The notes beneath the pieces are model-generated. The model searched no databases, was not told the origin of the DNA, and saw only the letters and a program-made list of their open reading frames with translations. 56,288 nucleotides of DNA from Candidatus Magasanikiibacteriota bacterium (GTDB lineage: Bacteria > Patescibacteriota > Patescibacteriia > Magasanikbacterales > UBA922), in NCBI GenBank assembly GCA_041675185.1, contig JBAYUH010000003.1:1-56288 (forward strand), given 5' to 3'. A program made the translations under genes and the position numbers. Positions within the stretch are counted from its first letter, which is position 1, and every line of letters begins with the position of its first letter. Shown here piece by piece: positions 5,901-50,326 of this stretch.

Positions 5901-6126
5901 TGTTGCAGTATATGATGGAGATGGTAAACTTACTTCCACTGCTTATTTACCTATTGGCCATGGTGGTTCTACAGCCAATCATTGTGTTGGTTTGAAAATG
6001 GCAGGTTCTGGTGAATATAGATTTGTCTCTAGCGAAGATTCTATTTTTGTCAAAGGTATGGACAAAAATGGCGATGCTATTTTGAATGAAATAAAGAAAA
6101 GTAATATTGAAAGTAACGTTTTATAA
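2971..6126 (+). CDS. large (1051 aa) hypothetical protein with coiled-coil/acidic N-terminal third, a central hydrophobic segment and a His/Asn-rich region
   Basis: Uninterrupted 3.1-kb ORF in AT-rich sequence. Acidic tract EQENEEETEIEE. Hydrophobic segment NTAGVATGLFALRGVAYAG. His-rich tract HTDHSHILSTDNTDHH. No catalytic motif recognised. Confidence 0.75.
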   Translation: MSETKRNNIEMFIPAIEKENLLESYDNFSEKVKQLLVKSEKVTKFCSAVLDLLHSTPDDLNEKLKNKTELVEDLKKITFELNTIFLVLAGKEEKKINFSVVVDRLNYFENKVDSIMGVVQNPDQEYISFVEDENKNYVHDDFDNDNWMGGKQEQKPTIQEENDVNDNVSKQVEQENEEETEIEEKSDFVEIIKNENDNEQEEPEKDIHKETPKKLGFFKKLFSKEGRQEIKKDVKSFGKGLLKALPNMAYKTATSVFGVKLVTDSVGLIVDKVTKGKNGWGDYAKMSKNKYERKEIEQTFREAFEEILVKNTKETKSETETTEAKRPKEILEKIAKLDAKIDSSQASNEDKVKLKEKLHEILEQDNFSKKEVYEGVKEKIAEIIKTYTDNKLSLITVLKDALNTAGVATGLFALRGVAYAGTSMAERIRSNRSENKKKELEGKENEKESTMKDLFLNSTIETLRGLGFQGIKKDRTTLQKGVDFAKSVGTILRGLGIYGVAFGDTDIAGAFHRLSSNLEEHGLASTVGRNFVDNIERVFHISHGDEFRKTLAEQQKEVGMFAQNMGLTAATSVHEQLHVGQNIPIVEPRNNIAENIEVNHEPQIFSLTVTKGGSAWGTLDKTLDSDNTPQEFKNMFVGDKHVDFSQWREKQLLDMGYQKVNGHWGSPFTIHAGAEMKVYKGEDGDWHARFDKELKAVHADTHREYRTINVHKTLHFQNENKHDIADTNKNEIANTLKKIANTKDVNFDEKTGEISLVEHHNTSPNLEVHTDHSHILSTDNTDHHVKIESGTNFETSIIPAKPSFFDESQVIHNQTHNVDHANNIEHNTLSNGQAKKVETTNITSELKSMQSGVKDTKSGLIDNVSTHKVGEITAKKFNTKIENIGYGFDDSPASEYDERGISKVMYDVVKERIISSPDTLSEEAKNLIDDNLMDPVEKTRELSAMFVNEGTLTDLSLEEKLFLGGDDVFNNSHEFTSVAVYDGDGKLTSTAYLPIGHGGSTANHCVGLKMAGSGEYRFVSSEDSIFVKGMDKNGDAILNEIKKSNIESNVL

Positions 6127-6148
6127 CTTTTTTATTGCTATTTAATTG

Positions 6149-6180
6149 AAAACAACCTAAGGAATGAGGTTGTTTTTGTT
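6149..6180 (+). terminator. rho-independent terminator after the 1051-aa gene
   Basis: aaaacaacct (6149-6158) pairs perfectly with aggttgtttt (6167-6176). The loop is 8 nt and a T-run follows. Confidence 0.7.
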
Positions 6181-6266
6181 GTTAGTTATATTTTTGTGGG
6201 TTAATACCCAATTTTATCATATTGGTGGTTCCAGTAGTTTAGAATCTTTCCTTCCTGTACATGCTA

Positions 6267-6295
6267 TTGACAAAATAGTCAAAATATGTTATATT
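6267..6295 (+). promoter_or_regulatory. sigma70-type promoter TTGACA-17 nt-TATATT
   Basis: ttgaca at 6267-6272, an exact 17-nt spacer, and tatatt at 6290-6295. It sits about 350 nt upstream of the ATG at 6644. Confidence 0.5.
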
Positions 6296-6301
6296 ATCCC
6301 G

Positions 6302-6643
6302 TTCTTTACTAAAGATTAATATATGGTTGTTTTGTGGGTTGAGATAGGGGATGAGAGATAGCTCTTGTTACTATCTCAGCTAACAAGCTGAAACTATTCT
6401 AGACTATGGCATATCTATGCTATAGACAGATAGATTCTTTACAATTTACCAGTGTGGCAAACACTAAAAATAAGCGATGTAGAGTGGGTTTCCCTACACG
6501 GTCAAGACTTAGTTATAATAAATATAGTTAGGTGTTGACCGTGTAGGAACCCCGCTGTGGGGTTTGAGACGACTGTCCGTCCTTCGGACGGCGATCATTC
6601 CTCACACGGGTGTTCGTGTTCTAAACTTTGGAGGTGTATTGTT
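6302..6643 (+). promoter_or_regulatory. long structured 5' leader (or independent ncRNA) upstream of the first island gene
   Basis: Overlapping alternative hairpins: gagatag/ctatctc (6355-6361/6371-6377) and cttgtta/taacaag (6364-6370/6381-6387). A 13-bp perfect stem at 6493-6505/6535-6547. GC hairpins at 6548-6564 and 6577-6591. The SD GGAGG lies at 6630-6634. Confidence 0.45.
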
Positions 6644-7267
6644 ATGAAAACCAGTATCAACAGTAATGTCATTATTCCTCAACAAGAAATCAAGTTGCCG
6701 ATGGCTTTGGTCATCGGCAATGACGACACCACAACGACGGCGCGTACCACCGTCAAAAATCATCAACGTGGCTGGTTCTTTGGTGTCCTTTGGACACTGG
6801 GAACACTCGTGGTTCTCACGATCATCGCTGCCCTCCTTTGGGGAGCATTGAGACCGCAGCCGGTTATCGTCGACTACTCGGGCGCTCTCGGGCGCATCGA
6901 GAGTAAGATCGAGGACGGCAGGATTGAGATTTCGACGGCGGCCAACTCCTCTGTAGAGGCGGCATTATTCTCTAAGAAGAATAATGACATTTTGATTCCT
7001 GTTGCCCATCGCGTAAATCGCGACGGCAAGATTCTTGACAGGGCCCTTGGCGTCACTTATGACGCGAATGGAGAAATTTCTTCCGTTCAGACGTTGGACG
7101 AGGTTCTGATGGCGGCCAACCGCGCGGCGACCGCCGCCGAGAAGCAACCGACCATCATCGTACGGCGCGTCGAAGCGGTCGACATGACCGAGACGAACTC
7201 GAGGCTCTCGGCCATTGAGAAGGCGTTGGCTCAGCCAACGACACCCACCCTCGAGCGGGTGGAGTAG
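6644..7267 (+). CDS. bitopic membrane protein, unknown function (island gene 1)
   Basis: ATG at 6644 lies 9 nt after GGAGG. The GTG-extended version from 6557 in the track would run through the leader hairpins. Single TM (WFFGVLWTLGTLVVLTIIAALLWGAL). GC-rich codon usage. Confidence 0.7.
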   Translation: MKTSINSNVIIPQQEIKLPMALVIGNDDTTTTARTTVKNHQRGWFFGVLWTLGTLVVLTIIAALLWGALRPQPVIVDYSGALGRIESKIEDGRIEISTAANSSVEAALFSKKNNDILIPVAHRVNRDGKILDRALGVTYDANGEISSVQTLDEVLMAANRAATAAEKQPTIIVRRVEAVDMTETNSRLSAIEKALAQPTTPTLERVE

Positions 7268-7484
7268 GTAGTAAGAGTGCCACACTGGTAAACCTGGAGG
7301 TCGTAGAAGGTCGAAGAAGCTTAATTGCTTTTTTGACTGGACACGACCTCTAGGAATCCAGTACATTACACTGATTACATAGATTGTAAGAGATTATATG
7401 GAATTAGACAAATATTAAAATTAGCTAGATAACAAATATTTCGTGTCATAAGACTTATGACGTGAGATATGTGCTATCCAGCAC

Positions 7485-7706
7485 AAAATGTTCATTACAA
7501 TTTACTAATTTTTTGAGACTAAATATAGACAGAAGAGTATTTTTCTTTTGGTTTTGGGAAAATCTAGTGTGGTAAGGGAAAGAGTAATAAAGGTTTTTAT
7601 AATTCTTTCCCTTATCGCACTTAGCCGCCCCGCTCGGGGCAAATGACCCGCGTGGCGGGACGGTAAGGTTTTTTCAACTTCAGATCAAGAGAGAGGAGGT
7701 GTATAT
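7485..7706 (+). promoter_or_regulatory. structured 5' leader of island gene 2, paralogous to 6431-6643
   Basis: Shares the following with leader 1: ttacaatttac, agtgtggYaa, a long stem with an AT-rich loop (18 bp, 7566-7583/7604-7621), the ccccgctNgggg hairpin (7627-7640), a second GC hairpin (7647-7659), and GGAGGTGTAT before the ATG. Confidence 0.5.
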
Positions 7707-8462
7707 ATGATGAGCGCGATTTCGCGCTTTGTCATGACGCTGGGTCTGTGCGTTATGGCTCTCGTCGCGATTAGCGGCGAGGCGAAAGCAGACAGTTGGG
7801 TTGAGACCTATCGGACCGTGTGTCCGACAGGGTCAAAGACCCTCAATGTAACTTGTACTCGCGAAGGCGAGGAAGTTATATTGCGATTTGGCTGTGGGGG
7901 TCAGATTGCAACTTACACCTACACTTGCCAACACCCCAAGTTGGCAACAACATCGTTGCTTCCTAAGATCACCGAGGACAACTGGTTCGATTACCAGCTC
8001 GGCCTTCACACCAGTGGCGTTTTCGCCACCGGAGAGCTTCCACAGATGTTTTACATCGGTGGTGAGTTTTCCGCTCAGCTCAAACTGAGTGGGAAGTGGT
8101 GGATTTCTGGGTCACTCGGCTTGGGCTATGCCCGAGTTGATGGTGATAACATTTCTCTCACAGAAAGCTTCGGACTTCAGTACCGTATCAATACGGACTG
8201 GAATCTTGGGCTCGTCGCGCGCCACTACGTGGTGCTTGATGGTGAGGGTGATGTGCTCCAGGTGATCCTGCCCACTGTGGAGATTGTGTACAATGTTTCC
8301 AAAGGTCTGCAAGTCGTCTTGAACGGCGGTGCAGGCTGGGGACATTTCCGGGTGAGCGAGCGTATTTCAGCTGAGTCCTCTGTGGCTCCTTCTGAGTATA
8401 CAACGATCACTCGCGACGATCTCGTCGGGACGTTGGGACTGAACCTGAGGGCTAAGTTCTAA
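7707..8462 (+). CDS. secreted protein: Cys-rich N-domain plus 8-stranded outer-membrane-type beta-barrel (OmpX/OmpW/OMP_b-brl-like) (island gene 2)
   Basis: Signal peptide MMSAISRFVMTLGLCVMALVAISGEAKA. Eight amphipathic beta-strand-like segments, including FDYQLGLHT, WWISGSLGLGYARV, WNLGLVARHYVV and LVGTLGLNLRAKF. The terminal residue is Phe. Confidence 0.7.
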   Translation: MMSAISRFVMTLGLCVMALVAISGEAKADSWVETYRTVCPTGSKTLNVTCTREGEEVILRFGCGGQIATYTYTCQHPKLATTSLLPKITEDNWFDYQLGLHTSGVFATGELPQMFYIGGEFSAQLKLSGKWWISGSLGLGYARVDGDNISLTESFGLQYRINTDWNLGLVARHYVVLDGEGDVLQVILPTVEIVYNVSKGLQVVLNGGAGWGHFRVSERISAESSVAPSEYTTITRDDLVGTLGLNLRAKF

Positions 8463-8582
8463 TCAACGGTGAGCGAGGTTGTAGTCAGATACCTCGTCAA
8501 AAAAATCTGGCACAGTTCAAATTTTAGAGTTTCTGTCTATTTTTTGCAAAAGGTGGCGCTCCAGCCTTAAAATGGAGCTTGG

Positions 8583-10238
8583 ATGAAAATGAAGAATGGT
8601 ATGTTCAGTTTCGTGGTCATGGCGTTTTTCGCTATGGCTTTCTCGACCATCAGTGCTTGCGCTGACGGTCAGGGTATCAACACGCCGGCGACGTCTGTCG
8701 CTGGTCTCAACGCGGACGGGACTGGTCCCGCAGACAACTGCGAGGCAGTCTACAATCCGCCTAGTGTGAGGTTGGGAAAGAGTTGTGTTGTCGTAGCTGA
8801 CTGTAACAGTGTTGCACCGTTGTTGAAGTCAGGGGCTTCTGCTCCAGTGTTCTGTGTTACGCAGAACGAGGTAGATGACTTTGGCTGGTCACAGGTTCTT
8901 GTGGGGCAGTGCGTTGCACAGCTCGACACGGACGGTGACGCGGCTGGTGACGAGTGTGACGACGATGACGATGGTGACCTCATCAAGGACGCCGTCGACA
9001 ATTGCCCGCTGGTTACTAACCATGATCAGCTCAACACCGACCACGATGGACTTGGCGACGCCTGTGATCCCGACGACGACAACGACGGGATCCTCGATGG
9101 TGTTGACAACTGTCCGCTGGTGGAGAATGCCAATCAGCTCGACACGAACACTGATGGGGTTGGCGATGCGTGCGAGGATGACTCGGATGGCGACGGTATT
9201 CTGAATAATACCGATAACTGTCCGTTTGTGGCGAATGTTGATCAACTCAATTCCGATGATGATCTGATGGGCGACGCCTGTGATCCCGACGACGACAACG
9301 ACGGGATCCTCGACGCCGCTGACAATTGTCCGCTGGTGGCGAATGCCAATCAGCTCGACACTGACGGCGACAGTTTCGGTGATGTCTGCGATCCAGACAT
9401 CGATGGCGACACAGTACTCAACGGTGTCGACAACTGCCCGCTTGTTGCCAACCATGGTCAGCTCGACACTGACGGCGACAGTTTCGGTGATGTCTGCGAT
9501 CCAGACATCGATGGCGACACAGTACTCAACGGTGTCGACAACTGCCCGAACGTTGCTAATTTTGATCAATCAGATCTTGACAACGACAGTTTCGGTGATG
9601 TCTGCGATCCTGACTGCGACGGCGACGGCACCGTTGCGCCATGCAACGCCGACTCGGATGGCGACGGTTTCATTCCTCCTGCTGATTGTATGGAGGGTGA
9701 GGCGTCGGTTCATCCGGGTGCGACTGAGCTCTGCAACGGTGTTGACGACGACTGCGATGGTGTAACCGACGATGGCTGTCCGGCTCCCGCCTGCGTTACT
9801 GCCACCGAATGTGATGATGGTATCGCAACGAACACTGACACTTGCGTCAGCGGGGTGTGTGTACATACTCCGTTGCCGCCGGCTGGCACGTGTTTGGTGA
9901 ATGCTGATTGTCTAAGTACCGAAGCGTGTATTGCTGGGATTTGCCGACTCAAAGCAGCTCCTGGTCAATGTTCGCCTTTCGCCGTCACGGTGAAAGGGAT
10001 GACGACACCGTCGGTCAAAAAGGCATATCTTGAATGGTATACCACCTCGGCCAATCCCGCACCCACAAGGAACGGGGTAGTCGAAGATGGAACGTATCAG
10101 TCATTTGCTGGCGAATGCTCAGTTATCGCGTTTGATTTCGCGGTGGGTGAGTGTGGCTGTCATACTGCCTTTGGGGATTCTCCGTGTAAGGAGCTTCCTG
10201 ATTCACCTGGCCTCGTCGGATGCCGGCATAATCAGTAG
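8583..10238 (+). CDS. lipoprotein with six thrombospondin type 3 (calcium-binding DxDxDG...DNCP) repeats and a Cys-rich C-terminal region with a CNGVDDDCDG motif (island gene 3)
   Basis: Signal peptide with lipobox ISAC (Cys26). Six 36-aa units contain DNCPxVxNxxQxDxDxDxxGDxCDxDxDxDG. ELCNGVDDDCDGVTDDGC follows the repeats. Confidence 0.8.
   Translation: MKMKNGMFSFVVMAFFAMAFSTISACADGQGINTPATSVAGLNADGTGPADNCEAVYNPPSVRLGKSCVVVADCNSVAPLLKSGASAPVFCVTQNEVDDFGWSQVLVGQCVAQLDTDGDAAGDECDDDDDGDLIKDAVDNCPLVTNHDQLNTDHDGLGDACDPDDDNDGILDGVDNCPLVENANQLDTNTDGVGDACEDDSDGDGILNNTDNCPFVANVDQLNSDDDLMGDACDPDDDNDGILDAADNCPLVANANQLDTDGDSFGDVCDPDIDGDTVLNGVDNCPLVANHGQLDTDGDSFGDVCDPDIDGDTVLNGVDNCPNVANFDQSDLDNDSFGDVCDPDCDGDGTVAPCNADSDGDGFIPPADCMEGEASVHPGATELCNGVDDDCDGVTDDGCPAPACVTATECDDGIATNTDTCVSGVCVHTPLPPAGTCLVNADCLSTEACIAGICRLKAAPGQCSPFAVTVKGMTTPSVKKAYLEWYTTSANPAPTRNGVVEDGTYQSFAGECSVIAFDFAVGECGCHTAFGDSPCKELPDSPGLVGCRHNQ
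9351..9548 (+). repeat. perfect 90-bp tandem duplication (period 108 bp) inside the TSP3-repeat gene
   Basis: 9351-9440 and 9459-9548 are identical (cagctcgacactgacggcgacagtttcggtgatgtctgcgatccagacatcgatggcgacacagtactcaacggtgtcgacaactgcccg). A second shared block, ggcgacgcctgtgatcccgacgacgacaacgacgggatcctcga, occurs near 9053 and 9270. Confidence 0.9.
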
Positions 10239-10477
10239 TAGACATCGCAGTCTCATAAATTAGTAAAAACTGACCCTTGAAATAGGGTCCACCTGTTCAA
10301 AGATTCCAAAAACGTATTACAGTTACGTCTAGGAGGAGAGCAAGAGGTCGTGTGGACCGCTTTAAACAAAACACAACTAAGAGGGGGATGGGATTTCAGA
10401 CTGTAACTGAAATCCCTACCATATTACGCTTTTATAAATTTTATGAAGGTGTTGAGGGTAAAAATATAAATAATGAA

Positions 10478-10508
10478 ACAGTAACTTGCAATGAGTTGCT
10501 GTTTTTTT
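10478..10508 (+). terminator. rho-independent terminator closing the island transcript
   Basis: acagtaact (10478-10486) pairs with agttgctgt (10494-10502), including one G-U pair. Seven T residues follow. A second 8-bp hairpin lies at 10509-10527. Confidence 0.65.
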
Positions 10509-10577
10509 ATACTCAGTTTCTGAGTATCGCATTTATCATTTTGAAAAAAAACAAAAATATGGTAATATCTAAGTATT

Positions 10578-12065: not shown

Positions 12066-12233
12066 TATAAATAAACTATAATTAGACAATAACTTGACGA
12101 TAACTAACAAAAACAATAAGATCACTAGTTTTTGTATCGTTATAGTTTCATTATCGTATAATTATTTAAATTTGATAATAACTAAACAACAACTATTTAG
12201 TAACTATTAACAATAACTATTATAATATAAAAT

Positions 12234-12362
12234 ATGGAAGAGGAGGGAAGTAAGTATGTACCGTTGAATAAGTTGTTTGTCTACAAAATTTCGATAGAGC
12301 TGTGTGATTTAGGTTGGAGCATTTATGAAAAATTTGATTGGCAAGATAAGAAAATAAAATGA
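12234..12362 (+). pseudogene. truncated remnant of a four-helix-bundle ('23S rRNA intervening sequence protein') gene
   Basis: ATG at 12234 gives MEEEGSKYVPLNKLFVYKISIELCDLGWSIYEKFDWQDKKIK followed by a stop. This matches the N-terminal pattern of the family (..PL.K..VY..S.EL....W.IY..L.W.DKKI..). The downstream ANIAEG part is missing. Confidence 0.45.
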
Positions 12363-12589
12363 AAAAGAGTGATGTGTAGTGTAAAAAGTTATTTTCTAGT
12401 TATTGTTTAATTAAATTTTGTAGAATAGACAACTAAACAATAATTAGTCAATAACGTTACAATAACTATTTTCCAAAAGTTATCGGCTAGTTAAACTACA
12501 TTGAAGAAATATTTATACAATAACTAAACAATAATAATACAATAACTAGTTTTAAATTAGTTATTGTCTAGTTACAGTCTTATAGTATT

Positions 12590-13609
12590 ATGAACAAAAA
12601 AAAATTACAACACAAAACAATATCTCCAATCGACTGTGTCCTTGGTATCACTTACAATTGTAATTCTCGTTGTGTGATGTGTGATATTTGGAAAATAAAA
12701 GATTTTCCTGAATTACCAGTGGCAGAGTACAAAAAATTACCAAGTTCTTTGCGCGATATCAATATTTCTGGTGGTGAGCCTTTTTTGCGTGGAGATATTC
12801 CAGAGATAATTGCTACTGTTAAGAAAGCAGCTCCTAAAGCTCGAATGGTTATCTCGACCAATGGTTTCATGCCAGTCTTGATTGAAAAACAAATGAAAGA
12901 AATATTGAAAATCAAACCAGATATTGGTATTGCTATTTCTGTTGATGGTTATGGAAAGACTCATGAGGAAATTCGTAAAATTCCCAATGCTTGGGAAAAA
13001 GATATGGAAACTCTAGAAAGATTACAAAAATTAGGTATGAAAAATTTGCGTCTAGCTTTCACTATCTTGCCACAAAATATACAAGATTTTGGTAAAGTTT
13101 ATGACGAAACTAGAAAGCGTGGTATTCAGTTTACGCATGCTTTTGCACAGAGCTCAGAACATTATTTTGGTGGCAGTAACAATGATAATAATAAACCAAA
13201 TTTGGATATATTGAAGGCACAATATAAATATCTTATAAATGGCGAACTAAAATCTTGGCACCCAAAGAAATGGGTGAGAGCTTTTTTTGCTCATGGTCTA
13301 TACAAATTTAGTATTGAAAAAACTCAAGTTTTGAACAATGATCCTGGTACGAAGTTTTTTTATCTTGATCCACGTGGTGTAGTCTATCCTTCAGTAGTAC
13401 ACAATTATCCAATGGGTAATATCCAAAATTATGACAAGTGGAATGATTTGTGGTATGGTGAAACTGCAGAAAAAGCTAGAGAAAAAGTAGTAACCATTGG
13501 TCGGCCAGCTTGGATGATTTGTACAGCTAGGACAGCTATTAGGAAAAATCCTCACAAAGTGGTGAAATGGATAATCCAAAATAAAGTTGGGGGAATGAGG
13601 GATTTGTAA
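12590..13609 (+). CDS. radical SAM protein
   Basis: CNSRCVMC (CX3CX2C) near the N-terminus, followed by the SGGEPFLR glycine-rich SAM motif. Confidence 0.8.
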   Translation: MNKKKLQHKTISPIDCVLGITYNCNSRCVMCDIWKIKDFPELPVAEYKKLPSSLRDINISGGEPFLRGDIPEIIATVKKAAPKARMVISTNGFMPVLIEKQMKEILKIKPDIGIAISVDGYGKTHEEIRKIPNAWEKDMETLERLQKLGMKNLRLAFTILPQNIQDFGKVYDETRKRGIQFTHAFAQSSEHYFGGSNNDNNKPNLDILKAQYKYLINGELKSWHPKKWVRAFFAHGLYKFSIEKTQVLNNDPGTKFFYLDPRGVVYPSVVHNYPMGNIQNYDKWNDLWYGETAEKAREKVVTIGRPAWMICTARTAIRKNPHKVVKWIIQNKVGGMRDL

Positions 13610-13643
13610 CAAACAATAATTATAAGGTCACTAGCTATTGTCT

Positions 13644-13783
13644 AGTTATAGTTTAATCCGCCCAAGGCGGACAAGGTTTAATTCCTCGTAGTTTCAGCCA
13701 GAGGACTGATCAGCCTTGGGCACGATACTGCGAAATAATCCAATTGATACATTGTCAGCTTGCTGCGAGGTAGTTCATTTATC
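13644..13783 (-). repeat. dispersed structured repeat, family 1 (long variant)
   Basis: aatccgcccaaggcggacaaggtttaattcctcg is identical to 42434-42467. Relative to that copy it carries a roughly 31-nt internal insertion, and the insertion is homologous to 17631-17698 in the opposite orientation. Confidence 0.8.
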
Positions 13784-13862
13784 GTGTTGTTATTAATTTT
13801 GTTGGAGTCTAATTAGATTATAATTAAACAAAAACTATACAATAACTATTTTTTTTGAAATT

Positions 13863-15084: not shown

Positions 15085-15113
15085 AAAAACGTTCTTGTTA
15101 AGAACGTTTTTTT
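15085..15113. terminator. bidirectional terminator between convergent GT4 genes
   Basis: aaaaacgttctt (15085-15096) pairs perfectly with aagaacgttttt (15100-15111). A-runs and T-runs flank both sides. Confidence 0.75.
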
Positions 15114-16392: not shown

Positions 16393-16427
16393 AAAGGCTT
16401 GAAAAGCCTGAAATGCTAGAAAGGCTT
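16393..16427 (+). repeat. dispersed repeat, family 3 (ggcttgaaa words)
   Basis: aaaggcttgaaaagcctgaaatgctagaaaggctt matches 47823-47857 at 33 of 35 positions. A related copy lies at 34612-34690. Confidence 0.8.
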
Positions 16428-16515
16428 GGAAGGTCTTTTTAAGTATAAATTTTTTAGATAAAATCTAGTAAAACCAATAAACTAATAAACTAATAATCTA
16501 TTAAACCAAAATACT

Positions 16516-17550: not shown

Positions 17551-17630
17551 TAATTTAGGAATTTTAAATTTTGAATTTTAAAACAATTCCTAAATTTTTT
17601 AATTTCAAATGCAAAAATATTGTATAATAA

Positions 17631-17698
17631 ATTACCTCGCAGTATCGTGCTTTAGACTGTTCAATCCTCTGATTCAGGCTGATGAGGTATATATCCAG
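17631..17698 (+). repeat. dispersed structured repeat, family 1 (short inverted variant)
   Basis: tacctcgcagtatcgtgc...cctctg...ctgatgaggta aligns with the reverse complement of 13690-13735. Confidence 0.6.
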
Positions 17699-17845
17699 GA
17701 AATATCTTTTGAAAATTTACGGTTTCTTAAATTTTTCCCTTAAAGGAAATTTTGAGATAAGCCTCTAGGAATAAAATGATTTAAAATTTCTAAATTGTAA
17801 AATTGTTTTAAAATTTAAAATTTCTAAATTAAAAATTTAATTCGT

Positions 17846-19796: not shown

Positions 19797-19897
19797 CAGT
19801 AGAAAATTACAATTTAAAATAAACAAATTCCAAATAAATTATAGTAAACAACAGTTTTAATTTGTAATTTGTAAATTGTTATTTGTATATTTCAAAT

Positions 19898-19977: not shown

Positions 19978-20012
19978 ACCCCGCCCTTCGCGAAAGGCGG
20001 GGTGATATTTTT
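19978..20012 (+). terminator. GC hairpin terminator after the tRNAs
   Basis: accccgcc / ggcggggt stem with loop cttcgcgaaa. The module is nearly the same as the one at 30310-30348. Confidence 0.55.
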
Positions 20013-20018
20013 CAAAAT

Positions 20019-20046
20019 AAAAACTACCAAATTATTGGTAGTTTTT
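20019..20046. terminator. bidirectional terminator (tRNAs on + / lipoprotein gene on -)
   Basis: aaaaactaccaa (20019-20030) pairs perfectly with ttggtagttttt (20035-20046). The loop is 4 nt. Confidence 0.75.
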
Positions 20047-20060
20047 GTTTTTAGATTAAT

Positions 20061-20629: not shown

Positions 20630-20657
20630 TTGACAAAAAATACTATAATGGTATGAT
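20630..20657 (+). promoter_or_regulatory. candidate promoter TTGACA-16 nt-TATGAT upstream of uvrA
   Basis: ttgaca at 20630-20635 and tatgat at 20652-20657. This would give a leader of about 200 nt that contains the palindrome at 20736-20794. Confidence 0.35.
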
Positions 20658-20735
20658 TAGCTTGGTTCTTTAGATAATTAAGTGTAAGTAATTAAACCCT
20701 TATTTGAGGGCTTTTTGTGCTACCAAATAGACTAC

Positions 20736-20794
20736 AGTCTACAGACAACAGACTATGGATAGAACTTTAGTCAGTAGTCTGTTGTCTGTAGACT
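20736..20794. repeat. perfect 20-bp inverted repeat with 19-nt loop
   Basis: agtctacagacaacagacta (20736-20755) is the exact reverse complement of tagtctgttgtctgtagact (20775-20794). Confidence 0.9.
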
Positions 20795-23606: not shown

Positions 23607-24971
23607 ATGCAAAATTTGATAGAAAAAGTTAAACGTTTTCCAACTGAACCTGGTATCTATTTATTCTACAATAAAACAAAAGAATTGATTTATATCGGGA
23701 AAGCAACATCTCTGCGCAATCGAGTACAGAGTTATTTTCGTGGTGCACGCTCAATGCGACCAATAGAACAAATGATGCATGAAGTGGTGGATATCAAAAT
23801 CAAACAAACTGATTCAGTCTTGGAAGCTGTGATTCTTGAAGCTAATTATATTAAGAAATTTTTACCAAAGTATAATGTCGAAGGTAAGGATGATAGAAGT
23901 TGGAACTATATTGTGGTTACTACTGATGAATTTTCTCAAGTCTTGTATATCAGACAACATGAAATGGATTTATTAAAACATAAAAACATAAAAACATTAA
24001 AACAAAGTGAAGAAAAGACCAATAAAAATAAAAGTGGTAAAATAAGTTCACTAAAACAGGTTAAGCATTTGTTTGGGCCATATCCCGGTTTGAAGACTAG
24101 AGAGATGATGAAGTTGTTGCAAAGATTATTTTTTATTTCTACTTGTAAGCCAGGACAAAAAAGAGAATGTCTGTATTATCAGATAGGTCAGTGTTTGGGA
24201 GTTTGCACGGGAGAAATAAGTTCAAGAGAATATAAAAGTAAAGTGATATTACCTCTGGTCACTTTTTTGCGTGGAGGCAAAAAGAAATTGATAAAAAGTC
24301 TAGAAATAAAAATGAGAAAGTTTTCGAAACAAGAAGACTTCGAAGAAGCTGGGCGTCTGCGTAATCAAATTAATTCTTTGTTAAAAATTCATGATATAGC
24401 TCTTTTAAACAAAACTTTTGTTGAGGATGACATTCGAATTACGAATGACCCGAATGTACGAATAAATAGAATAGAAGGATATGATATTTCTAATTTAGGG
24501 TCTACTGGTAAAGTAGGAAGTATGGTTGTGTTCGATGGTGTAGAAGCTCAGAAAAAAGATTATCGTAAATTCAAAATAAAAACAGTTGAAGGACAAAGTG
24601 ATGTAGATTGTTTGTGTGAAGTATTAGAGCGCAGATTAGCTCATGCTAACATTCGAATTTCGAATGACTCGAATGTACGAATTATAAATAAAAAAGATAT
24701 TTGGCCTTTGCCTGATATTTTTCTAATTGACGGTGGTAAGCCACAAGTAAGTGTTGCTATGTCTGTTTTAAAAAAATATAAACTAAATATTCCACTAGTT
24801 GGTATTGCCAAAGGTCCTGAACGTAAGAGAAATGATTTTATTTTTGGAAATAAAGATAGGGAATTTATAAAATTTGTAAATAATAATCAAGATCTTTTGA
24901 TCCGTGTTAGAGATGAAGCTCATAGATTTGCGATTACTTTTCAGAGGAGTTTACGTGGGATTAAAAGATAA
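23607..24971 (+). CDS. uvrC: excinuclease ABC subunit UvrC (short form, no C-terminal HhH domain)
   Basis: GIY-YIG (PGIYLFYNKTKELIYIGKATSLRNRVQSYF). UVR domain (QEDFEEAGRLRNQINSL). Endonuclease domain (RIEGYDISNLGSTGKVGSMVVF, LIDGGKPQV, RDEAHRFAI). The ATG at 23607 is preferred over the upstream TTG-extended ORF. Confidence 0.9.
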   Translation: MQNLIEKVKRFPTEPGIYLFYNKTKELIYIGKATSLRNRVQSYFRGARSMRPIEQMMHEVVDIKIKQTDSVLEAVILEANYIKKFLPKYNVEGKDDRSWNYIVVTTDEFSQVLYIRQHEMDLLKHKNIKTLKQSEEKTNKNKSGKISSLKQVKHLFGPYPGLKTREMMKLLQRLFFISTCKPGQKRECLYYQIGQCLGVCTGEISSREYKSKVILPLVTFLRGGKKKLIKSLEIKMRKFSKQEDFEEAGRLRNQINSLLKIHDIALLNKTFVEDDIRITNDPNVRINRIEGYDISNLGSTGKVGSMVVFDGVEAQKKDYRKFKIKTVEGQSDVDCLCEVLERRLAHANIRISNDSNVRIINKKDIWPLPDIFLIDGGKPQVSVAMSVLKKYKLNIPLVGIAKGPERKRNDFIFGNKDREFIKFVNNNQDLLIRVRDEAHRFAITFQRSLRGIKR

Positions 24972-25030
24972 AAGACTAAATAATTAGTTTCAAAAAATAT
25001 TGGCATATCTAAGCCAATTTTTTTGTTAAC

Positions 25031-25625: not shown

Positions 25626-25717
25626 AATAAAGTAAAAAGTAAATAGAAAATAGTAAATAGAATATTTAATAATTCACTATTTACTGTTGTCTGTTTACTA
25701 TTTACTAATATGAAGTT

Positions 25718-27010: not shown

Positions 27011-27052
27011 GTCAAAAGTCCATAAAGTCCATAAAGTCCATAAAGTCAAAAG
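27011..27052 (+). repeat. tandem 9-nt word array (gtcaaaagt / ccataaagt x3 / caaaagt)
   Basis: Read directly from the sequence. It is followed by a small terminator hairpin, cacgta/tacgtg, at 27057-27084. Confidence 0.85.
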
Positions 27053-27127
27053 TATTCACGTAGCTTGTCTGTTACGTGTTTTTGTTTTTTGTGGTATAAT
27101 TAAATTAATTAATTTTTGATTTGAGTT

Positions 27128-30269: not shown

Positions 30270-30309
30270 ACACTGGTTATGCTTATTTTAAAAGATTGTA
30301 CTGATAAAA

Positions 30310-30348
30310 ATCAACCCCGCCCTTCTCGAATGGCGGGGTTGATTTTTT
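30310..30348 (+). terminator. rho-independent terminator
   Basis: atcaaccccgcc (30310-30321) pairs perfectly with ggcggggttgat (30332-30343). TTTTTT follows. Confidence 0.85.
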
Positions 30349-31365: not shown

Positions 31366-32433
31366 ATGATTATCTATTTATTTTATTTTGGTTTTACTTT
31401 TCTTGTCTCTGTAGTGACAACTTTTTTTGTGACTATACTTATGAGAAAGTGTGGTATAGTGGACAAAGCTGGTAAGGAAAAAAGAAAAATTCACAAGAAA
31501 ACTATTGCGCTTGGTGGGGGATTAGCTATATTTTTTAGTTTTTTCTTGTCAGTTTTATTAACCTGGTTTTTGACTGATAATTTCACTTATGAAATTGTTG
31601 GGCGTAATTTGTTGGGATTATTTTTTGGTTCTTTGATTTTGGTTATTGGTGGAATTTTGGATGATAAATATAATTTGAGACCTAAATTACAAATAGTTTT
31701 TCCTATTTTGGCAACTTTGGTTATCATTTTTTCTGGTATTGGTCCACATGTTATCTCCAATCCTTTTGGTGGAATTATTAGACTTGATTTTTGGAAAATT
31801 AGTCTTGGTAATCTTGGTGTATTTGTAGTAGTGGCTGATTTGTTAGTTTTCTTTTGGCTTATGGGTATGATGTTTACTACCAAGTTTCTTGACGGTCTTG
31901 ATGGTTTGGTTTCGGGGATTGTGATTATTGGTGCTTTGGTTCTTTTCTTTTTTTCTTTACAAACACAATGGTATCAGCCTGATGTAGCGATGCTGGCTAT
32001 AATTTTGACTGGAGCTACATTGGGATTTTTAGTTTGGAATTGGTTTCCAGCCAAAATATTTCTTGGTGAAGGTGGTAGTTTGTTAACAGGATTTTTATTG
32101 GGTAGTCTGGCTATAATTTCTGGTGGGAAATTGGCAATTACTCTTTTGGTAATGGCTGTACCTGTTTTGGATGTGGGAAGAGTGATAATCAAACGTATAA
32201 GAAACAAAAAACCAATTTATATTGGCGACAATGAACATTTACATTTTCGTTTGTTGGAAAGTGGACTAAGTCAGAAACAAGCTGTATTATTATTATATAG
32301 TATTTCATTTTTGTTTGGTCTTTCAGCTTTGTTTTTGCAAAGTAAACAAAAATTATTTTCTTTAATTTTTCTTTTTGTGGTGATGTTGCTTTTGGGTATT
32401 TGGTTTAGTAAAAAGAAGTTGAAGAATGTGTAG
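31366..32433 (+). CDS. glycosyltransferase family 4 polyprenyl-phosphate sugar-1-phosphate transferase (WecA/MraY family)
   Basis: About 10 TM helices. DDKYNL, FLDGLDGL and NWFPAKIFLGEGGS motifs. Confidence 0.85.
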   Translation: MIIYLFYFGFTFLVSVVTTFFVTILMRKCGIVDKAGKEKRKIHKKTIALGGGLAIFFSFFLSVLLTWFLTDNFTYEIVGRNLLGLFFGSLILVIGGILDDKYNLRPKLQIVFPILATLVIIFSGIGPHVISNPFGGIIRLDFWKISLGNLGVFVVVADLLVFFWLMGMMFTTKFLDGLDGLVSGIVIIGALVLFFFSLQTQWYQPDVAMLAIILTGATLGFLVWNWFPAKIFLGEGGSLLTGFLLGSLAIISGGKLAITLLVMAVPVLDVGRVIIKRIRNKKPIYIGDNEHLHFRLLESGLSQKQAVLLLYSISFLFGLSALFLQSKQKLFSLIFLFVVMLLLGIWFSKKKLKNV

Positions 32434-32530
32434 TGAGGAATGGGGGACGGGGAATGAGGAATGTGGAATGTAATTGATTTAGATTTTTAAAATTGTTTTT
32501 TATTTTGTTTGTTATCTATATACTTATATT

Positions 32531-33421: not shown

Positions 33422-33457
33422 CATGTAACATGTAACACGTATCACGTAACACATATT

Positions 33458-33483
33458 AAAAACCGCTTGAAAGCGGTTTTTTT
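33458..33483. terminator. bidirectional terminator (rplU / recR)
   Basis: aaaaaccgc / gcggttttt stem with loop ttgaaa. Confidence 0.8.
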
Positions 33484-34112: not shown

Positions 34113-34242
34113 TTTTGTAAATATACAATAGTAAAATAACAAATTTCAAATAATATACAAATCACAAATTTTATTTTTTTGTTATTGTTTGTTGTAATTT
34201 ATTTGGAATTTGTGTATTTTTAATTGTTTATTTTGTAAAGAT

Positions 34243-34539: not shown

Positions 34540-34688
34540 ACGTTTTTTATTTAAAATTTTGTTAATTAATTAAAAATATTTTATAACTATATTTTATCAA
34601 ATAAAGTGGATGTTTGAAAGGCTTGAAAGGCAGTTTTTATATTATAGCCTCTCAAGTTTTTTTGGCTTTTTAAGCATTTCCAGCCTTT

Positions 34689-42405: not shown

Positions 42406-42423
42406 TTAGTTTATTATAATAAT

Positions 42424-42529
42424 AGTTATATTTAATCCGCCCAAGGCGGACAAGGTTTAATTCCTCGCAGTTTACTGCGAAATAATCTAATTGATACCTC
42501 GTCAGCTTGCTGCTAGGTATTTCATTTAT
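42424..42529 (-). repeat. dispersed structured repeat, family 1 (short variant)
   Basis: 34 nt are identical to 13655-13688. Contains hairpins ccgcc/ggcgg and tcgcagt/actgcga. It occupies the region that the TTG-extended HIT ORF would have to translate. Confidence 0.8.
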
Positions 42530-42955: not shown

Positions 42956-43033
42956 GGCTTACAAAGCTTACAAGGCTCACAAGGCTTACATTCTGCCTTG
43001 TAAGCTTCGTAAGCCTTGTAAGCCTTGTATAAG
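42956..43033. repeat. word-hairpin (9-nt words ggcttacaa / ccttgtaag)
   Basis: Four tandem cttacaa-type words are followed by four copies of their complement around the loop ttct. Confidence 0.85.
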
Positions 43034-44592: not shown

Positions 44593-44804
44593 TATTCTAG
44601 ATTTATTATTTATTTATATAAATAGGTGATTTAATTTCAAAATACAAAATCCAAATTACAAATAAAAATCAAATTTCAAATATTAAAATTATTTTGTCAT
44701 TTAAAATTTTGGATTTGATTTGAAATTTGAGCTTTGAAATTTGTCATTATAAATAATTTGTAAACCAGCCAACTAACACTAATTAAATGACTAACTAATT
44801 TTTT

Positions 44805-45697: not shown

Positions 45698-45725
45698 AAA
45701 CAACTCTCAAAAAGAGTTGTTTTTT
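45698..45725 (+). terminator. rho-independent terminator
   Basis: aaacaactct / agagttgttt 10-bp stem, 5-nt loop and a T-run. Confidence 0.8.
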
Positions 45726-45768: not shown

Positions 45769-46623
45769 ATGAAGTTATCTATAATTACTGTCACTTGGAA
45801 TAATGAACTACAAATTGCTAGACAGCTCAAGTCAGTGATTTCTGGTTGTAAAAATATTAGTTTTGAACAAATCGTGGTGGACAATGCTTCCAAAGATAGA
45901 ACTGTAGAAATTGCCAAATCAGTGCCAAATGTCAAAGTGATTGTAAATACAGAAAATACTGGTTTTGCTCATGCCAATAATCAGGGTATGGAAATTAGTA
46001 CTGGTGAATATTTGCTTTTCCTCAATGCTGATATGAAAGTAGAAGAGGGAAGTATTGACACAATAGTTAATTGGTTAGAAAATAGAAAAGATGTTGGTAT
46101 TGTTAGTCCAAAATTAGTAGATGAAAATGGTAAATTAAATGAAGACGCTAAACCAAGAAGATTGCCTCGTGTTTGGGAACAAATTGCTTTAATTTTGAAA
46201 TTGCCACATTTGTTTCCTAATATTTTGGATAAATATTTGATGAAAGATTTTGATAGTGAAAAAGAACAAGAAGTAGATTCTGTACGTGGTTCGTTTATGC
46301 TAATGAGAAGAAGTGTGGTTGAAAAACTTGGCTTTGCTTTTGATCCGAGATATTATATTTGGTATGAAGATGTAGATATTTGTCGGGAAGTAAAAAAGAT
46401 GGGTTTAAAAGTTGTTTATAGTCCAATGATTAGTGCTATAGATTATGTTGGACAAAGTTTCAAGAAGCAAGAAAGTCTATGGAAGCAAAAGAATTTTACG
46501 AGAAGTATGCTGACTTATTTTCAAAAATGGGAACCATTTTATAAATGGATGTGGATTTGGTTGGTAAGGCCAGTGGGAATTGTAATGGTATATTTAGTTA
46601 ATAAATTTAATAATTCAAAATAA
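45769..46623 (+). CDS. glycosyltransferase family 2
   Basis: LSIITVTWNN, NTGFAHANNQG and LFLNADM motifs. Confidence 0.85.
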   Translation: MKLSIITVTWNNELQIARQLKSVISGCKNISFEQIVVDNASKDRTVEIAKSVPNVKVIVNTENTGFAHANNQGMEISTGEYLLFLNADMKVEEGSIDTIVNWLENRKDVGIVSPKLVDENGKLNEDAKPRRLPRVWEQIALILKLPHLFPNILDKYLMKDFDSEKEQEVDSVRGSFMLMRRSVVEKLGFAFDPRYYIWYEDVDICREVKKMGLKVVYSPMISAIDYVGQSFKKQESLWKQKNFTRSMLTYFQKWEPFYKWMWIWLVRPVGIVMVYLVNKFNNSK

Positions 46624-46741
46624 ACAAATAAAAATAAACAAATTCCAAATAAATTACAATAAACAATATAAAAATTTTGGAATTTGTGGTTTGTTTATTA
46701 TTTGGAATTTGTAATTTTAGTATTGTATATTTATCTATATT

Positions 46742-47821: not shown

Positions 47822-47908
47822 AAAAGGCTTGAAATGCCTGAAATGCTTGAAAGGCTTAAAAAGCTTTTCTGGCCTTTCAAGCTTTTTTAGCTTTTTAAGC
47901 CTTTTATT

Positions 47909-49896: not shown

Positions 49897-49933
49897 ACAT
49901 TGATTGCACTGATTTTAAATGATTTCACTGATT

Positions 49934-50326
49934 ATGTATAAAGAGAGTGATTTAACAAGAAAAATAATTGGTATAGCCATGAAAATACATCGTGAGATCG
50001 GTCCTGGATTTCAAGAAAAGATGTATCATAAAGCTATGATTTTAGATTTAGAAAAGGAAGGTTTGGTAGTTTGTAGTGAAAAAGAATTTGATGTAATATA
50101 TCAGAATGAATGTGTGGGTACTTTCAGATTGGATCTGGTGGTTGAAGGAAAGATTGTCATTGAATTAAAAGCTGTTTCAGGAGAAATTCCAAAATTATTT
50201 TATTCACAAACAATTTCTTACCTAAAAGCAAGTGGTTTGGAAATAGGCCTATTAATTAATTTTTGTAATGATAGTCTTGATATAAAACGTTTTGCAAATT
50301 ATAAAAATTTTAAACAAGGTAATTAA
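49934..50326 (+). CDS. GxxExxY protein (PD-(D/E)XK-like fold family)
   Basis: IIGIAMKIHREIGPGFQEKMYHKAM (the GxxExxY signature reads GFQEKMY) and DLVVEGKIVIELKAV. An alternative ATG lies at 49919. Confidence 0.75.
   Translation: MYKESDLTRKIIGIAMKIHREIGPGFQEKMYHKAMILDLEKEGLVVCSEKEFDVIYQNECVGTFRLDLVVEGKIVIELKAVSGEIPKLFYSQTISYLKASGLEIGLLINFCNDSLDIKRFANYKNFKQGN

Follow-up and report, generated by a model that had tools for sequence, protein, structure and literature searches.

The closest precedent for the elements described here is found in Xanthomonas. Each Xanthomonas genome carries about 185 arrays of the heptamer GGGAATC, typically of about four units, and 70-75 per genome consist of two convergent arrays on opposite strands that are capable of folding into a stem-loop or a cruciform (Rehm et al. 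2015; PMC4692102). These arrays are 89-93% intergenic, lie 28 nt from the upstream open reading frame (ORF), sit mostly between co-directional and rarely between divergent ORFs, and vary in length and sequence between close species. A 2007 survey, as relayed in PMC4692102, reported heptamers to be over-represented among bacterial simple repeats, with polymerase slippage as a possible cause. Intergenic direct repeats of heptamers are also over-represented, with function unexplained, in cyanobacteria (short tandemly repeated repetitive sequences, STRR) and in Beggiatoaceae and Bacteroidetes (TAACTGA; PMC4679880). Here we investigate a 56,288-nt stretch of a Candidatus Magasanikiibacteriota genome within the Patescibacteria (contig JBAYUH010000003.1, positions 1 to 56,288; hereafter the window), whose intergenic spacers hold what we call word hairpins: tandem copies of a 7- or 9-nt word followed by tandem copies of its reverse complement. 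We interpret word hairpins as dispersed intergenic 'periodic palindromes', DNA-level elements comparable to repetitive extragenic palindromes (REPs) and MITEs (miniature inverted-repeat transposable elements) and shaped by slippage and template switching. We give this reading about an even chance of being correct.

An initial annotation of the window knew of no formal description of such an architecture. The Xanthomonas array pairs show otherwise for the general form, and a literature search found no description of word hairpins for Patescibacteria. Like the Xanthomonas pairs, word hairpins consist of convergent arrays of the same unit, are intergenic, lie close to the upstream ORF and prefer co-directional gene pairs. 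However, Xanthomonas uses one G-rich, quadruplex-capable word (GGGANTN) in a genome of 65% GC, whereas the words here are AT-rich, without G tracts or G-quadruplex (G4) potential. Also unlike Xanthomonas, many word families occur per genome, with 7- and 9-nt units and collinear paralogous copies, in a Patescibacteria lineage. The dominance of period 7 is shared with the STRR and TAACTGA arrays, among which several different heptamer arrays sometimes lie side by side (PMC4679880). Those arrays are, by contrast, nearly always direct, with a single inverted case in the 170 sets of the Beggiatoaceae genome, and most of them are located immediately upstream of start codons; of the arrays here, between a fifth and a third have their own reverse complement as a partner.

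The window has a GC content of about 31%, save for a stretch of 45-54% GC at 6-10.3 kb, and encodes uvrA, uvrC, mraZ-rsmH-ftsL, a penicillin-binding protein, a ClpB-like ATPase, recR and dnaB, together with a long series of glycosyltransferase and rfb genes. Its UvrA is 89% identical to that of a Candidatus Magasanikbacteria metagenome-assembled genome (MAG), and its RfbB is 86-88% identical to those of three other Magasanikbacteria/Patescibacteria MAGs, which places the organism in the candidate phyla radiation. The representative word hairpin lies between HIT-family and NUDIX genes at 42956-43029 (hairpins and other two-sided features are given without strand). Its left arm (42956-42990) is GGCTTACAA repeated 3.9 times and is followed, after a loop of 4 nt, by a right arm (42995-43029) of 3.9 copies of the TTGTAAGCC-type reverse-complement word; the earlier reading of tandem words, a ttct loop and reverse complements at this locus is correct to the base. 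RNAfold gives -40.9 kcal/mol, with mismatches at each word boundary, and none of 100 dinucleotide shuffles matches the minimum free energy (MFE; z = -6.7) or the tandem score (z = 12.2). Two other independent assemblies are identical across the locus and a 98.9%-identical strain has the same hairpin, so it is not an assembly artefact. Exact-protein look-ups for close strains yielded solely contigs that were identical or had the hairpin unchanged.

To survey such elements we used a detector that combines inverted repeats from self-BLAST with periodicity of the arms; it replaced an RNALfold-style listing of local hairpins, which was too permissive, with hundreds of loose stems in coding DNA. The census covered the window and 74 Patescibacteria loci, with Streptococcus loci (1.05 Mb) and other phyla as comparison sets. 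The intergenic DNA searched amounted to 135 kb for Patescibacteria without the window, 121 kb for Streptococcus and 58 kb for other phyla. Long intergenic inverted repeats number 92 in the window and the 74 loci together, and word hairpins 23; ten dinucleotide shuffles of the same spacers give means of 3.8 and 0.2. Periodicity and dyad symmetry are therefore far greater than in shuffled spacers, the comparison by which the initial annotation had said that its claim could be refuted. At the scale of 100-nt segments, MFE z < -4 is reached by 11% of intergenic and 0% of coding segments (Mann-Whitney p = 0.002), and tandem z > 3 by 25% and 4% (Mann-Whitney p = 2e-8).

The individual loci that had been listed in the window are unequal. 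Both signals lie beyond all shuffles at 42956, 1526, 12066, 25626 and 47822, and nearly so at 20736. Thus five or six of the 17 pass both tests, two show the dyad only (17551, 46624) and four show tandem words without a reverse-complement arm (16380, 19800, which has a weak dyad, 27011 and 33422). Five are weak on both measures (13610, 23468, 34143, 34540, 44593), although two of these, 34143 and 44593, are homologous copies of the 46624-type element. The statement that the architecture fills nearly every spacer was too strong: of the 33 spacers that measure 25 nt or more and lie outside the GC-rich island, about 10 hold word hairpins, 12 hold tandem arrays by a strict measure and about 14 hold arrays of some kind. 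Opposed arrays of the same unit, on opposite strands and close together, number 6-10 in the window.

Across taxa, long inverted repeats number 81 in the Patescibacteria loci without the window, 49 in Streptococcus and 12 in other phyla; for word hairpins the counts are 19, 0 and 1. None of the 49 Streptococcus inverted repeats is a word hairpin (Fisher p = 6e-5). Tandem arrays occur at 5.4 per 10 kb of spacer in Patescibacteria versus 0.3 in Streptococcus, with 7- and 9-mers enriched about 20-fold; the dominant periods in Patescibacteria spacers are 7 (38 of 74 arrays) and 9 (19 of 74), and about one array in five has an inverted partner. Many lineages of Patescibacteria contain word hairpins, and each uses words of its own (for example AATTCACCT, CCATGATTG, AAGATTAA, CAATTTT, AAAGGCTT, CAAATAGG, TTGTTAGA). 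A pattern scan for three copies of GGCTTNNAA was unsuited as a taxonomic census, the matches listed including direct arrays in many phyla; also among the matches listed were three Magasanikbacteria genomes, two with the hairpin form (L168, L216) and one with a direct array (L186).

Several observations outside the census concern the same kinds of array. Direct 8-9-nt arrays of the GGCTTGRAA type recur on several contigs of unrelated genomes, often adjoining arrays of other words: in the Acidobacteria MAG SJ750 (L164, L182, L187, L204, L232), Lachnospiraceae (L166, L218, L242) and Tidjanibacter (L173, L226, L203). Such dyad-free word arrays are thus widespread beyond Patescibacteria. L302, a contig catalogued as viral (IMG/VR UViG_2710723536_000001), has at 4700-4915 an A-type word hairpin of about 220 nt, with AAAATCCAAA-type and then TTTGACAT-type words, between co-directional ORFs; the contig may be a phage of the candidate phyla radiation (CPR) or a misfiled CPR contig. 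Of 22 matches to GGCTTACAA in viral contigs, the four inspected were all collagen-like Gly-Leu-Gln coding repeats and unrelated. In coding DNA, the window's uvrC has an in-frame low-complexity insert at 23975-24004 (AAAACATA x3.8) that is lacking from the uvrC of a relative (L001), which has instead a different, 9-nt-periodic in-frame insert encoding CESGKPCRPC (L001 5680-5725). Word-type slippage therefore reaches coding linkers too.

An all-against-all comparison of spacers, with alignments, defines dispersed families. Family A consists of CAAAT-type heptamers (degenerate NNNCAAA and then TTTGNNN), family B is built of the nonamer AAGGCTTNN, and family C, of CAATAACTA words, flanks a radical-SAM gene on both sides. 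In family A, the element at 46612-46735 lies between two glycosyltransferase genes and its paralogue at 34119-34235 between ybaB and recR. The two are 86-87% identical over 108-118 nt (E = 1e-31 for 34128 vs 46616), in opposite genomic orientation and in the same orientation relative to transcription. Another copy lies between tRNA-Glu and tRNA-Met (19800-19897); its right arm is made of TAATTTG heptamers and its left arm (19809-19851) is 91% identical to 46624-46666. A second A subtype comprises 44630-44765, in the rfbB-rfbD spacer, and 1611-1740, the centre of which is broken by a GC-rich inverted repeat (CCGCCTTGGGTGGA / TCCACCCAAGGCGGA).

Family B shows the same relationship between spacers. 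The hairpin at 47822-47905 (AAAGGCTTG x4.9 and then CAAGCCTTT-type words) occupies the entire spacer between two GT2 glycosyltransferase genes, and its pairing is nearly as good in registers shifted by 1-2 words. A half element at 16393-16433 (+ strand; AAAGGCTTG x4.6) is without the reverse-complement arm, and its first part (16393-16427) matches 47823-47857 at 94% over 35 nt, with variant words in the same order. B-family variants are the representative locus, with its GGCTTACAA words, and a degenerate hairpin of TTGAAAGGC words and their complement at 34610-34688, between dnaB and ybaB. Two further word hairpins are made of heptamers: AGTAAAT(AG) in the mraZ-rsmH spacer (25631-25706) and AGACTAC/GTAGTCT at 20736-20794, 73 nt upstream of uvrA.

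The collinear homology between unrelated spacers covers whole elements, including loops and the order of variant words, and therefore independent slippage cannot account for the families. Paralogous copies are, moreover, more alike than positional orthologues. Against the paralogue at 34128, element 46616 has a score of 74; for its positional orthologues in two relatives (L084 and L086) the score is only 28-30, and these orthologues instead resemble the window's element at 44625 (79%). Among the origins that the initial annotation had proposed, a non-autonomous element family is thus the best supported, with hairpins homologous between non-orthologous spacers (86% and 94%). A test of whether each hairpin derives from one inverted duplication of a heterogeneous array, by means of mirrored variants, gave a mixed outcome; many hairpins pair equally or nearly as well with one arm slid by one or two words. 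Covariation gave no readable signal in the four A-family copies, as there is too little variation among them.

Comparison with relatives reveals rapid turnover of these elements. Synteny with four loci (L001, L084, L085, L086) is good, and nucleotide alignments break at the spacers. Word identity at orthologous spacers, which had been proposed as a check, turns over: the corresponding site may hold another word, half an array or no element. The mraZ-rsmH spacer has AGTAAAT words in the window versus a hairpin of AGACTAC words in L001; AGACTAC also makes up the hairpin at 20736 of the window. At the 34540 spacer the window and L085 share AAAGGCTTG words, and L086 has GGCTTACAA words. The rfbB-rfbD spacer measures 212 nt with its A element in the window, versus 21 nt in L085 and L086, and relatives' spacers at element sites are as short as 7-21 nt. 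The representative hairpin has an orthologue in L086, is shrunk in L084 to a one-armed array (CAAGCCTTT x5) and is absent from L085. The array at 27015-27047 is conserved yet decayed in L001.

A metagenome scan for close strains yielded no match nearer to the window than 78% amino-acid identity, and it provided a pair of Magasanikbacteria genomes, L284 and L285 (the latter being the L084 genome), that are 91% identical. One A element differs between them by a 7-nt indel that duplicates the word GTATTTT. The same element shows a paired change, C to T in the left arm and G to A at the pairing position in the right arm; the chance of a complementary hit on the partner position is roughly estimated at 0.01. 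In a neighbouring spacer a GACTTTA array is expanded in one of the genomes. The suggestion that slippage is involved is therefore supported by the word indel and the array expansion between 91%-identical genomes, together with the enrichment of 7- and 9-mers. Template switching, proposed alongside it, is consistent with the one paired C:G to T:A change and with the lack of an RNA-type G-U bias (see below), but it is not demonstrated by them. A spacer of 141 nt in which L284 and L285 agree at 100% was set aside as evidence of constraint, because it lies within a 500-nt recombination tract. Divergence between the two genomes (L284 1990-2489 versus L285) is mosaic, from 0 to 24 differences per 100 nt, which indicates frequent homologous recombination between lineages.

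Word hairpins have a characteristic genomic position. They occur in 20 of 379 co-directional spacers versus none of 162 convergent or divergent spacers (p = 9e-4). The median distance from the stop codon to the hairpin is 9 nt, and that from the hairpin to the following start is 13 nt. In several cases the hairpin itself provides the stop codon of the upstream gene. The convergent spacers (0 of 67 with a word hairpin) carry, in the window, ordinary short hairpins. Selection for pairing at the transcript level should make G-U exceed A-C among mismatches on the sense strand. In word hairpins G-U numbers 24 versus 29 for A-C, and a 2:1 ratio is rejected (p = 0.001); co-directional inverted repeats of Streptococcus have 13 and 3.

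In light of these findings, we propose that tandem arrays of 7- and 9-nt words build up fast in Patescibacteria spacers, as their enrichment indicates, with replication slippage as the probable cause. Fold-back or template switching in replication would then place a reverse-complement copy beside an array, giving a long imperfect palindrome. The arms then alter their number of words by slippage and change jointly, probably by template switching of the quasipalindrome type, each with one example between L284 and L285. Entire elements are copied or converted between spacers, as the homology within families A and B shows. Copies persist almost only in short co-directional gaps, from just past a stop codon to just before the next start. 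In polycistronic mRNA they would form long, register-slippery stem-loops, which could stabilise the upstream mRNA, attenuate read-through or attract RNase III, although no sequence signature of selection on RNA pairing was found in the mismatch test.

Several points weigh against this interpretation. Some hairpins are better conserved than the flanking coding DNA, namely that at 20736-20794 (94% in L001 versus about 86%) and the representative hairpin (84% in L086 versus about 77%), which hints at function for a subset. The hairpin at 20736, counted as co-directional, lies in a divergent spacer by a manual gene map, and moving it weakens the position test to p ~0.01 (a rough estimate). The mismatch test comprises 53 mismatches, and strand-biased mutation could blur its result. 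The word indel and the paired substitution are each a single example. Whole spacers differ between relatives, with no clean pair of empty and filled sites and no target-site duplication. No gene for a REP-associated tyrosine transposase (RAYT, a Y1 transposase) was seen in the window, which encodes no transposase of any kind, and no insertion sequence (IS) was present in the window or in the other loci examined; inter-locus gene conversion is thus not separable from transposition. Finally, relatives were sampled as pieces of at most 22 kb, with crude, ORF-based gene calls.

Known mobile and palindromic repeats offer partial parallels to DNA-level elements of this kind. REPs and REPINs, like word hairpins, are dispersed extragenic imperfect palindromes that form families, are intergenic, evolve within the genome and have proposed effects on mRNA stability or termination (PMC3337134, PMC3116915, PMC3733652). 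Unlike word hairpins, which are 60-130 nt long, AT-rich and internally periodic, REPs are 20-40 bp, G+C-rich, tagged with GTAG/CGTC and associated with RAYTs. Among the window's elements GTAG is limited to the AGACTAC/GTAGTCT family, where it lies inside every word. Bacterial MITEs such as Correia, RUP and BOX (PMC3184786, PMC2229807) resemble word hairpins in being small, non-autonomous repeats between genes; their ends are inverted, they are polymorphic for presence or absence, and they occasionally overlap the ends of genes. They differ in that no target-site duplication or parent IS was identified here, and in that the whole of a word hairpin is palindromic and composed of tandem words. 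The MITE hallmark of terminal inverted repeats at 50-500 bp is trivial in this setting, since it follows from the palindromic nature and the length (60-130 nt) of the elements. Two other systems serve by analogy only, as their arms are not tandem words: quasipalindrome template-switch mutagenesis, which makes the arms of imperfect palindromes more alike (PMC7202029), and the selfish palindromic repeats of Volvox organelles, which spread through the intergenic DNA of reduced genomes (PMC2670323). Rfam 15 recovered from the window two tRNAs alone at gathering score and nothing credible at E <= 1, and left the word hairpins unmatched.

Alternatively, word hairpins may be selected RNA structures between cistrons: terminators of a weak or atypical kind, attenuators, stabilisers of mRNA 3' ends or processing sites for RNase III. 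Repeated words would then only be the way in which mutation most easily builds a long stem when the genome is AT-rich. Arguing for this case, they start a median of 9 nt past the stop codon between co-directional genes, are absent from divergent (promoter) spacers, are at some orthologous sites better conserved than the flanking genes and have provided one compensatory pair; the Xanthomonas heptamer arrays, 28 nt from the upstream ORF, are transcribed (PMC4692102). Counter to this, G-U does not exceed A-C, unlike in the Streptococcus hairpins, and convergent spacers, where terminators are expected, hold none. Arms are 28-56 nt (median 37) and stems have 29% GC. No separate T-rich tail is seen (0 of 21 with at least 6 T in the next 8 nt), a weak test that is uninformative because long inverted repeats draw A/T tracts into their arms, those of Streptococcus also scoring 0. 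The elements are dispensable, given the 7-21 nt spacers of relatives at the same sites, and one hairpin lies inside the usually co-transcribed mraZ-rsmH pair. Intrinsic terminators resemble word hairpins in placing a hairpin just past the stop codon, and the A/T-rich outer stems recall bidirectional terminators. But intrinsic terminators have GC-rich stems of about 5-14 bp, whereas stems here are 3-5 times longer and 29% GC, with no discrete U-tract apparent in the weak T-tail test, and are absent at convergent ends. By their sequence features, word hairpins lie outside the definition of canonical intrinsic terminators. Overall we consider selected RNA structures rather unlikely as the general explanation; an RNA role as stabiliser, attenuator or RNase III site is possible for a subset, especially those conserved above the flanking genes.

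The regular spacing of the words could also reflect binding arrays, in which a nucleoid-associated or cold-shock-type (OB-fold) protein recognises DNA or single-stranded RNA with a register of 7 or 9 nt, one protein per word, with the dyad secondary. The strong preference for periods 7 and 9 fits this idea, as do the cores CAAA(T) and GGCTT, which are held at fixed period and conserved across paralogues and species while linker bases vary. Cold-shock (Csp) proteins are reported on heptamer repeats with one protein per unit (PMC4679880). Against it, this window alone uses at least 8 unrelated words and other lineages use others, no candidate protein is linked to the elements, and the core word AAGGCTT is rare outside arrays (10 intergenic and 3 coding matches). 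We therefore regard binding arrays as improbable. DNA uptake sequences (DUS/USS) were likewise considered and rejected, as no word is dominant; AAGGCTT, with these same matches, is found in 4 of 33 spacers.

Equally improbable, in our view, is that every spacer grew its own hairpin in situ as a palindromic microsatellite, with no copying between loci. The word-size indel and array expansion between close relatives, the pairing of many hairpins in several registers and the frequency of tandem arrays without a dyad would all be expected from such growth. It does not explain collinear homology of whole elements in unrelated spacers or the greater similarity of paralogues than of positional orthologues, and it is contradicted for families A and B; it could apply to singletons such as 25631-25706. 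That the hairpins are an artefact of chance or low complexity in AT-rich spacers, or of assembly, has a negligible probability and is refuted for the core set: the AT-rich loci 13610, 23468 and 34540 are indistinguishable from dinucleotide shuffles, but the strong loci exceed all shuffles, one hairpin recurs in three independent assemblies and homologous elements are present in several species.

The window holds further arrays and hairpins beyond those that define the dispersed families. Family C occupies a region at 12066-12589, where CAATAACTA / TAGTTATTG arrays of both orientations surround a core without repeats, and, on the other side of the radical-SAM gene (12590-13609), arrays at 13610-13862 that have weak periodicity and dyad signals and an embedded GC-rich repeat. 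The related arrays match between the two sides at 81-87%, a cassette-like arrangement. The upstream spacer (12066-12589) also holds a short ORF remnant with no family match; a resemblance to a four-helix-bundle protein was considered and not confirmed. The GC-rich repeat AATCCGCCCAAGGCGGACAAGGTTTAATTCCTCG...ACTGCGAAATAATC occurs in two copies, 13643-13758 and 42423-42505, at 91-96% identity and with no Rfam match. Its copy at 13.6 kb has a 31-nt insert related in reverse complement to 17637-17671, and related CCGCC...GGCGG inverted repeats lie at 1560-1600 and 1690-1705. At 17551-17845, AT-rich heptamer arrays (AATTTTA / TTTAAAA) stand at both ends of a spacer, with long-range pairing around a GC-richer core.

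Three arrays on the + strand are direct only: AAAGTCCAT x3.7 at 27015-27047 and GTAACAC x4 at 33422-33452, each followed by an ordinary terminator-like hairpin, and GAATGTG x6.9 at 32424-32471, across the stop codon of the gene ending at 32433. Ordinary short hairpins with GC stems and T runs are found in at least 8 window spacers (15085-15111, 19978-20003, 20014-20051, 24992-25024, 27057-27090, 30307-30346, 33458-33481 and 45698-45722), among them all three convergent-gene spacers. Upstream of uvrA and its word hairpin, 20630-20722 contains a perfect TTGACA-N17-TATAAT promoter-like site and, about 40 nt later, a short GC hairpin and its T run. Site and hairpin are also conserved in L001, and they may represent a small leader RNA or attenuator.

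The segment of 45-54% GC at 6000-10530 encodes a secreted protein with thrombospondin type-3 (TSP3) repeats (8583-10238), whose gene has 108-bp tandem repeats at 8997-9626 and which is without record elsewhere, and it also holds two ORFs with no family match. In an independent assembly, the start of the contig falls at the right edge of this segment, 46 nt upstream of the 10578 gene; the segment is either a foreign or strain-variable island or else a chimeric join. A small gene of the GxxExxY / PD-(D/E)XK_3 nuclease family (49919-50326) stands alone within the glycosyltransferase cluster.

Looking across the entire analysis, the practical consequences of word hairpins for the study of these genomes are several. 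They break alignments and probably assemblies, can provide the stop codons of upstream genes and serve as strain markers, and hairpin-based predictors would mis-call them as terminators. The over-representation of heptamers in bacteria has been noted since 2007 and hardly studied (PMC4692102). Tiny, AT-rich genomes of uncultured Patescibacteria, with many word families, copying between spacers and quick turnover, make the origin of such arrays and their role in operons tractable by comparative genomics. We also consider, tentatively and as an unlikely extension, that periodic palindromes are phylum-wide and self-renewing, through slippage of 7- and 9-nt words and fold-back copying, and that they either spread between intercistronic gaps without a dedicated transposase or are recognised by a protein of the lineage whose register is 7 or 9 nt. 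If this is the case, these elements and the arrays of Xanthomonas, cyanobacteria and Beggiatoaceae would jointly suggest that a single general process writes DNA with a 7-nt period immediately downstream of bacterial genes.

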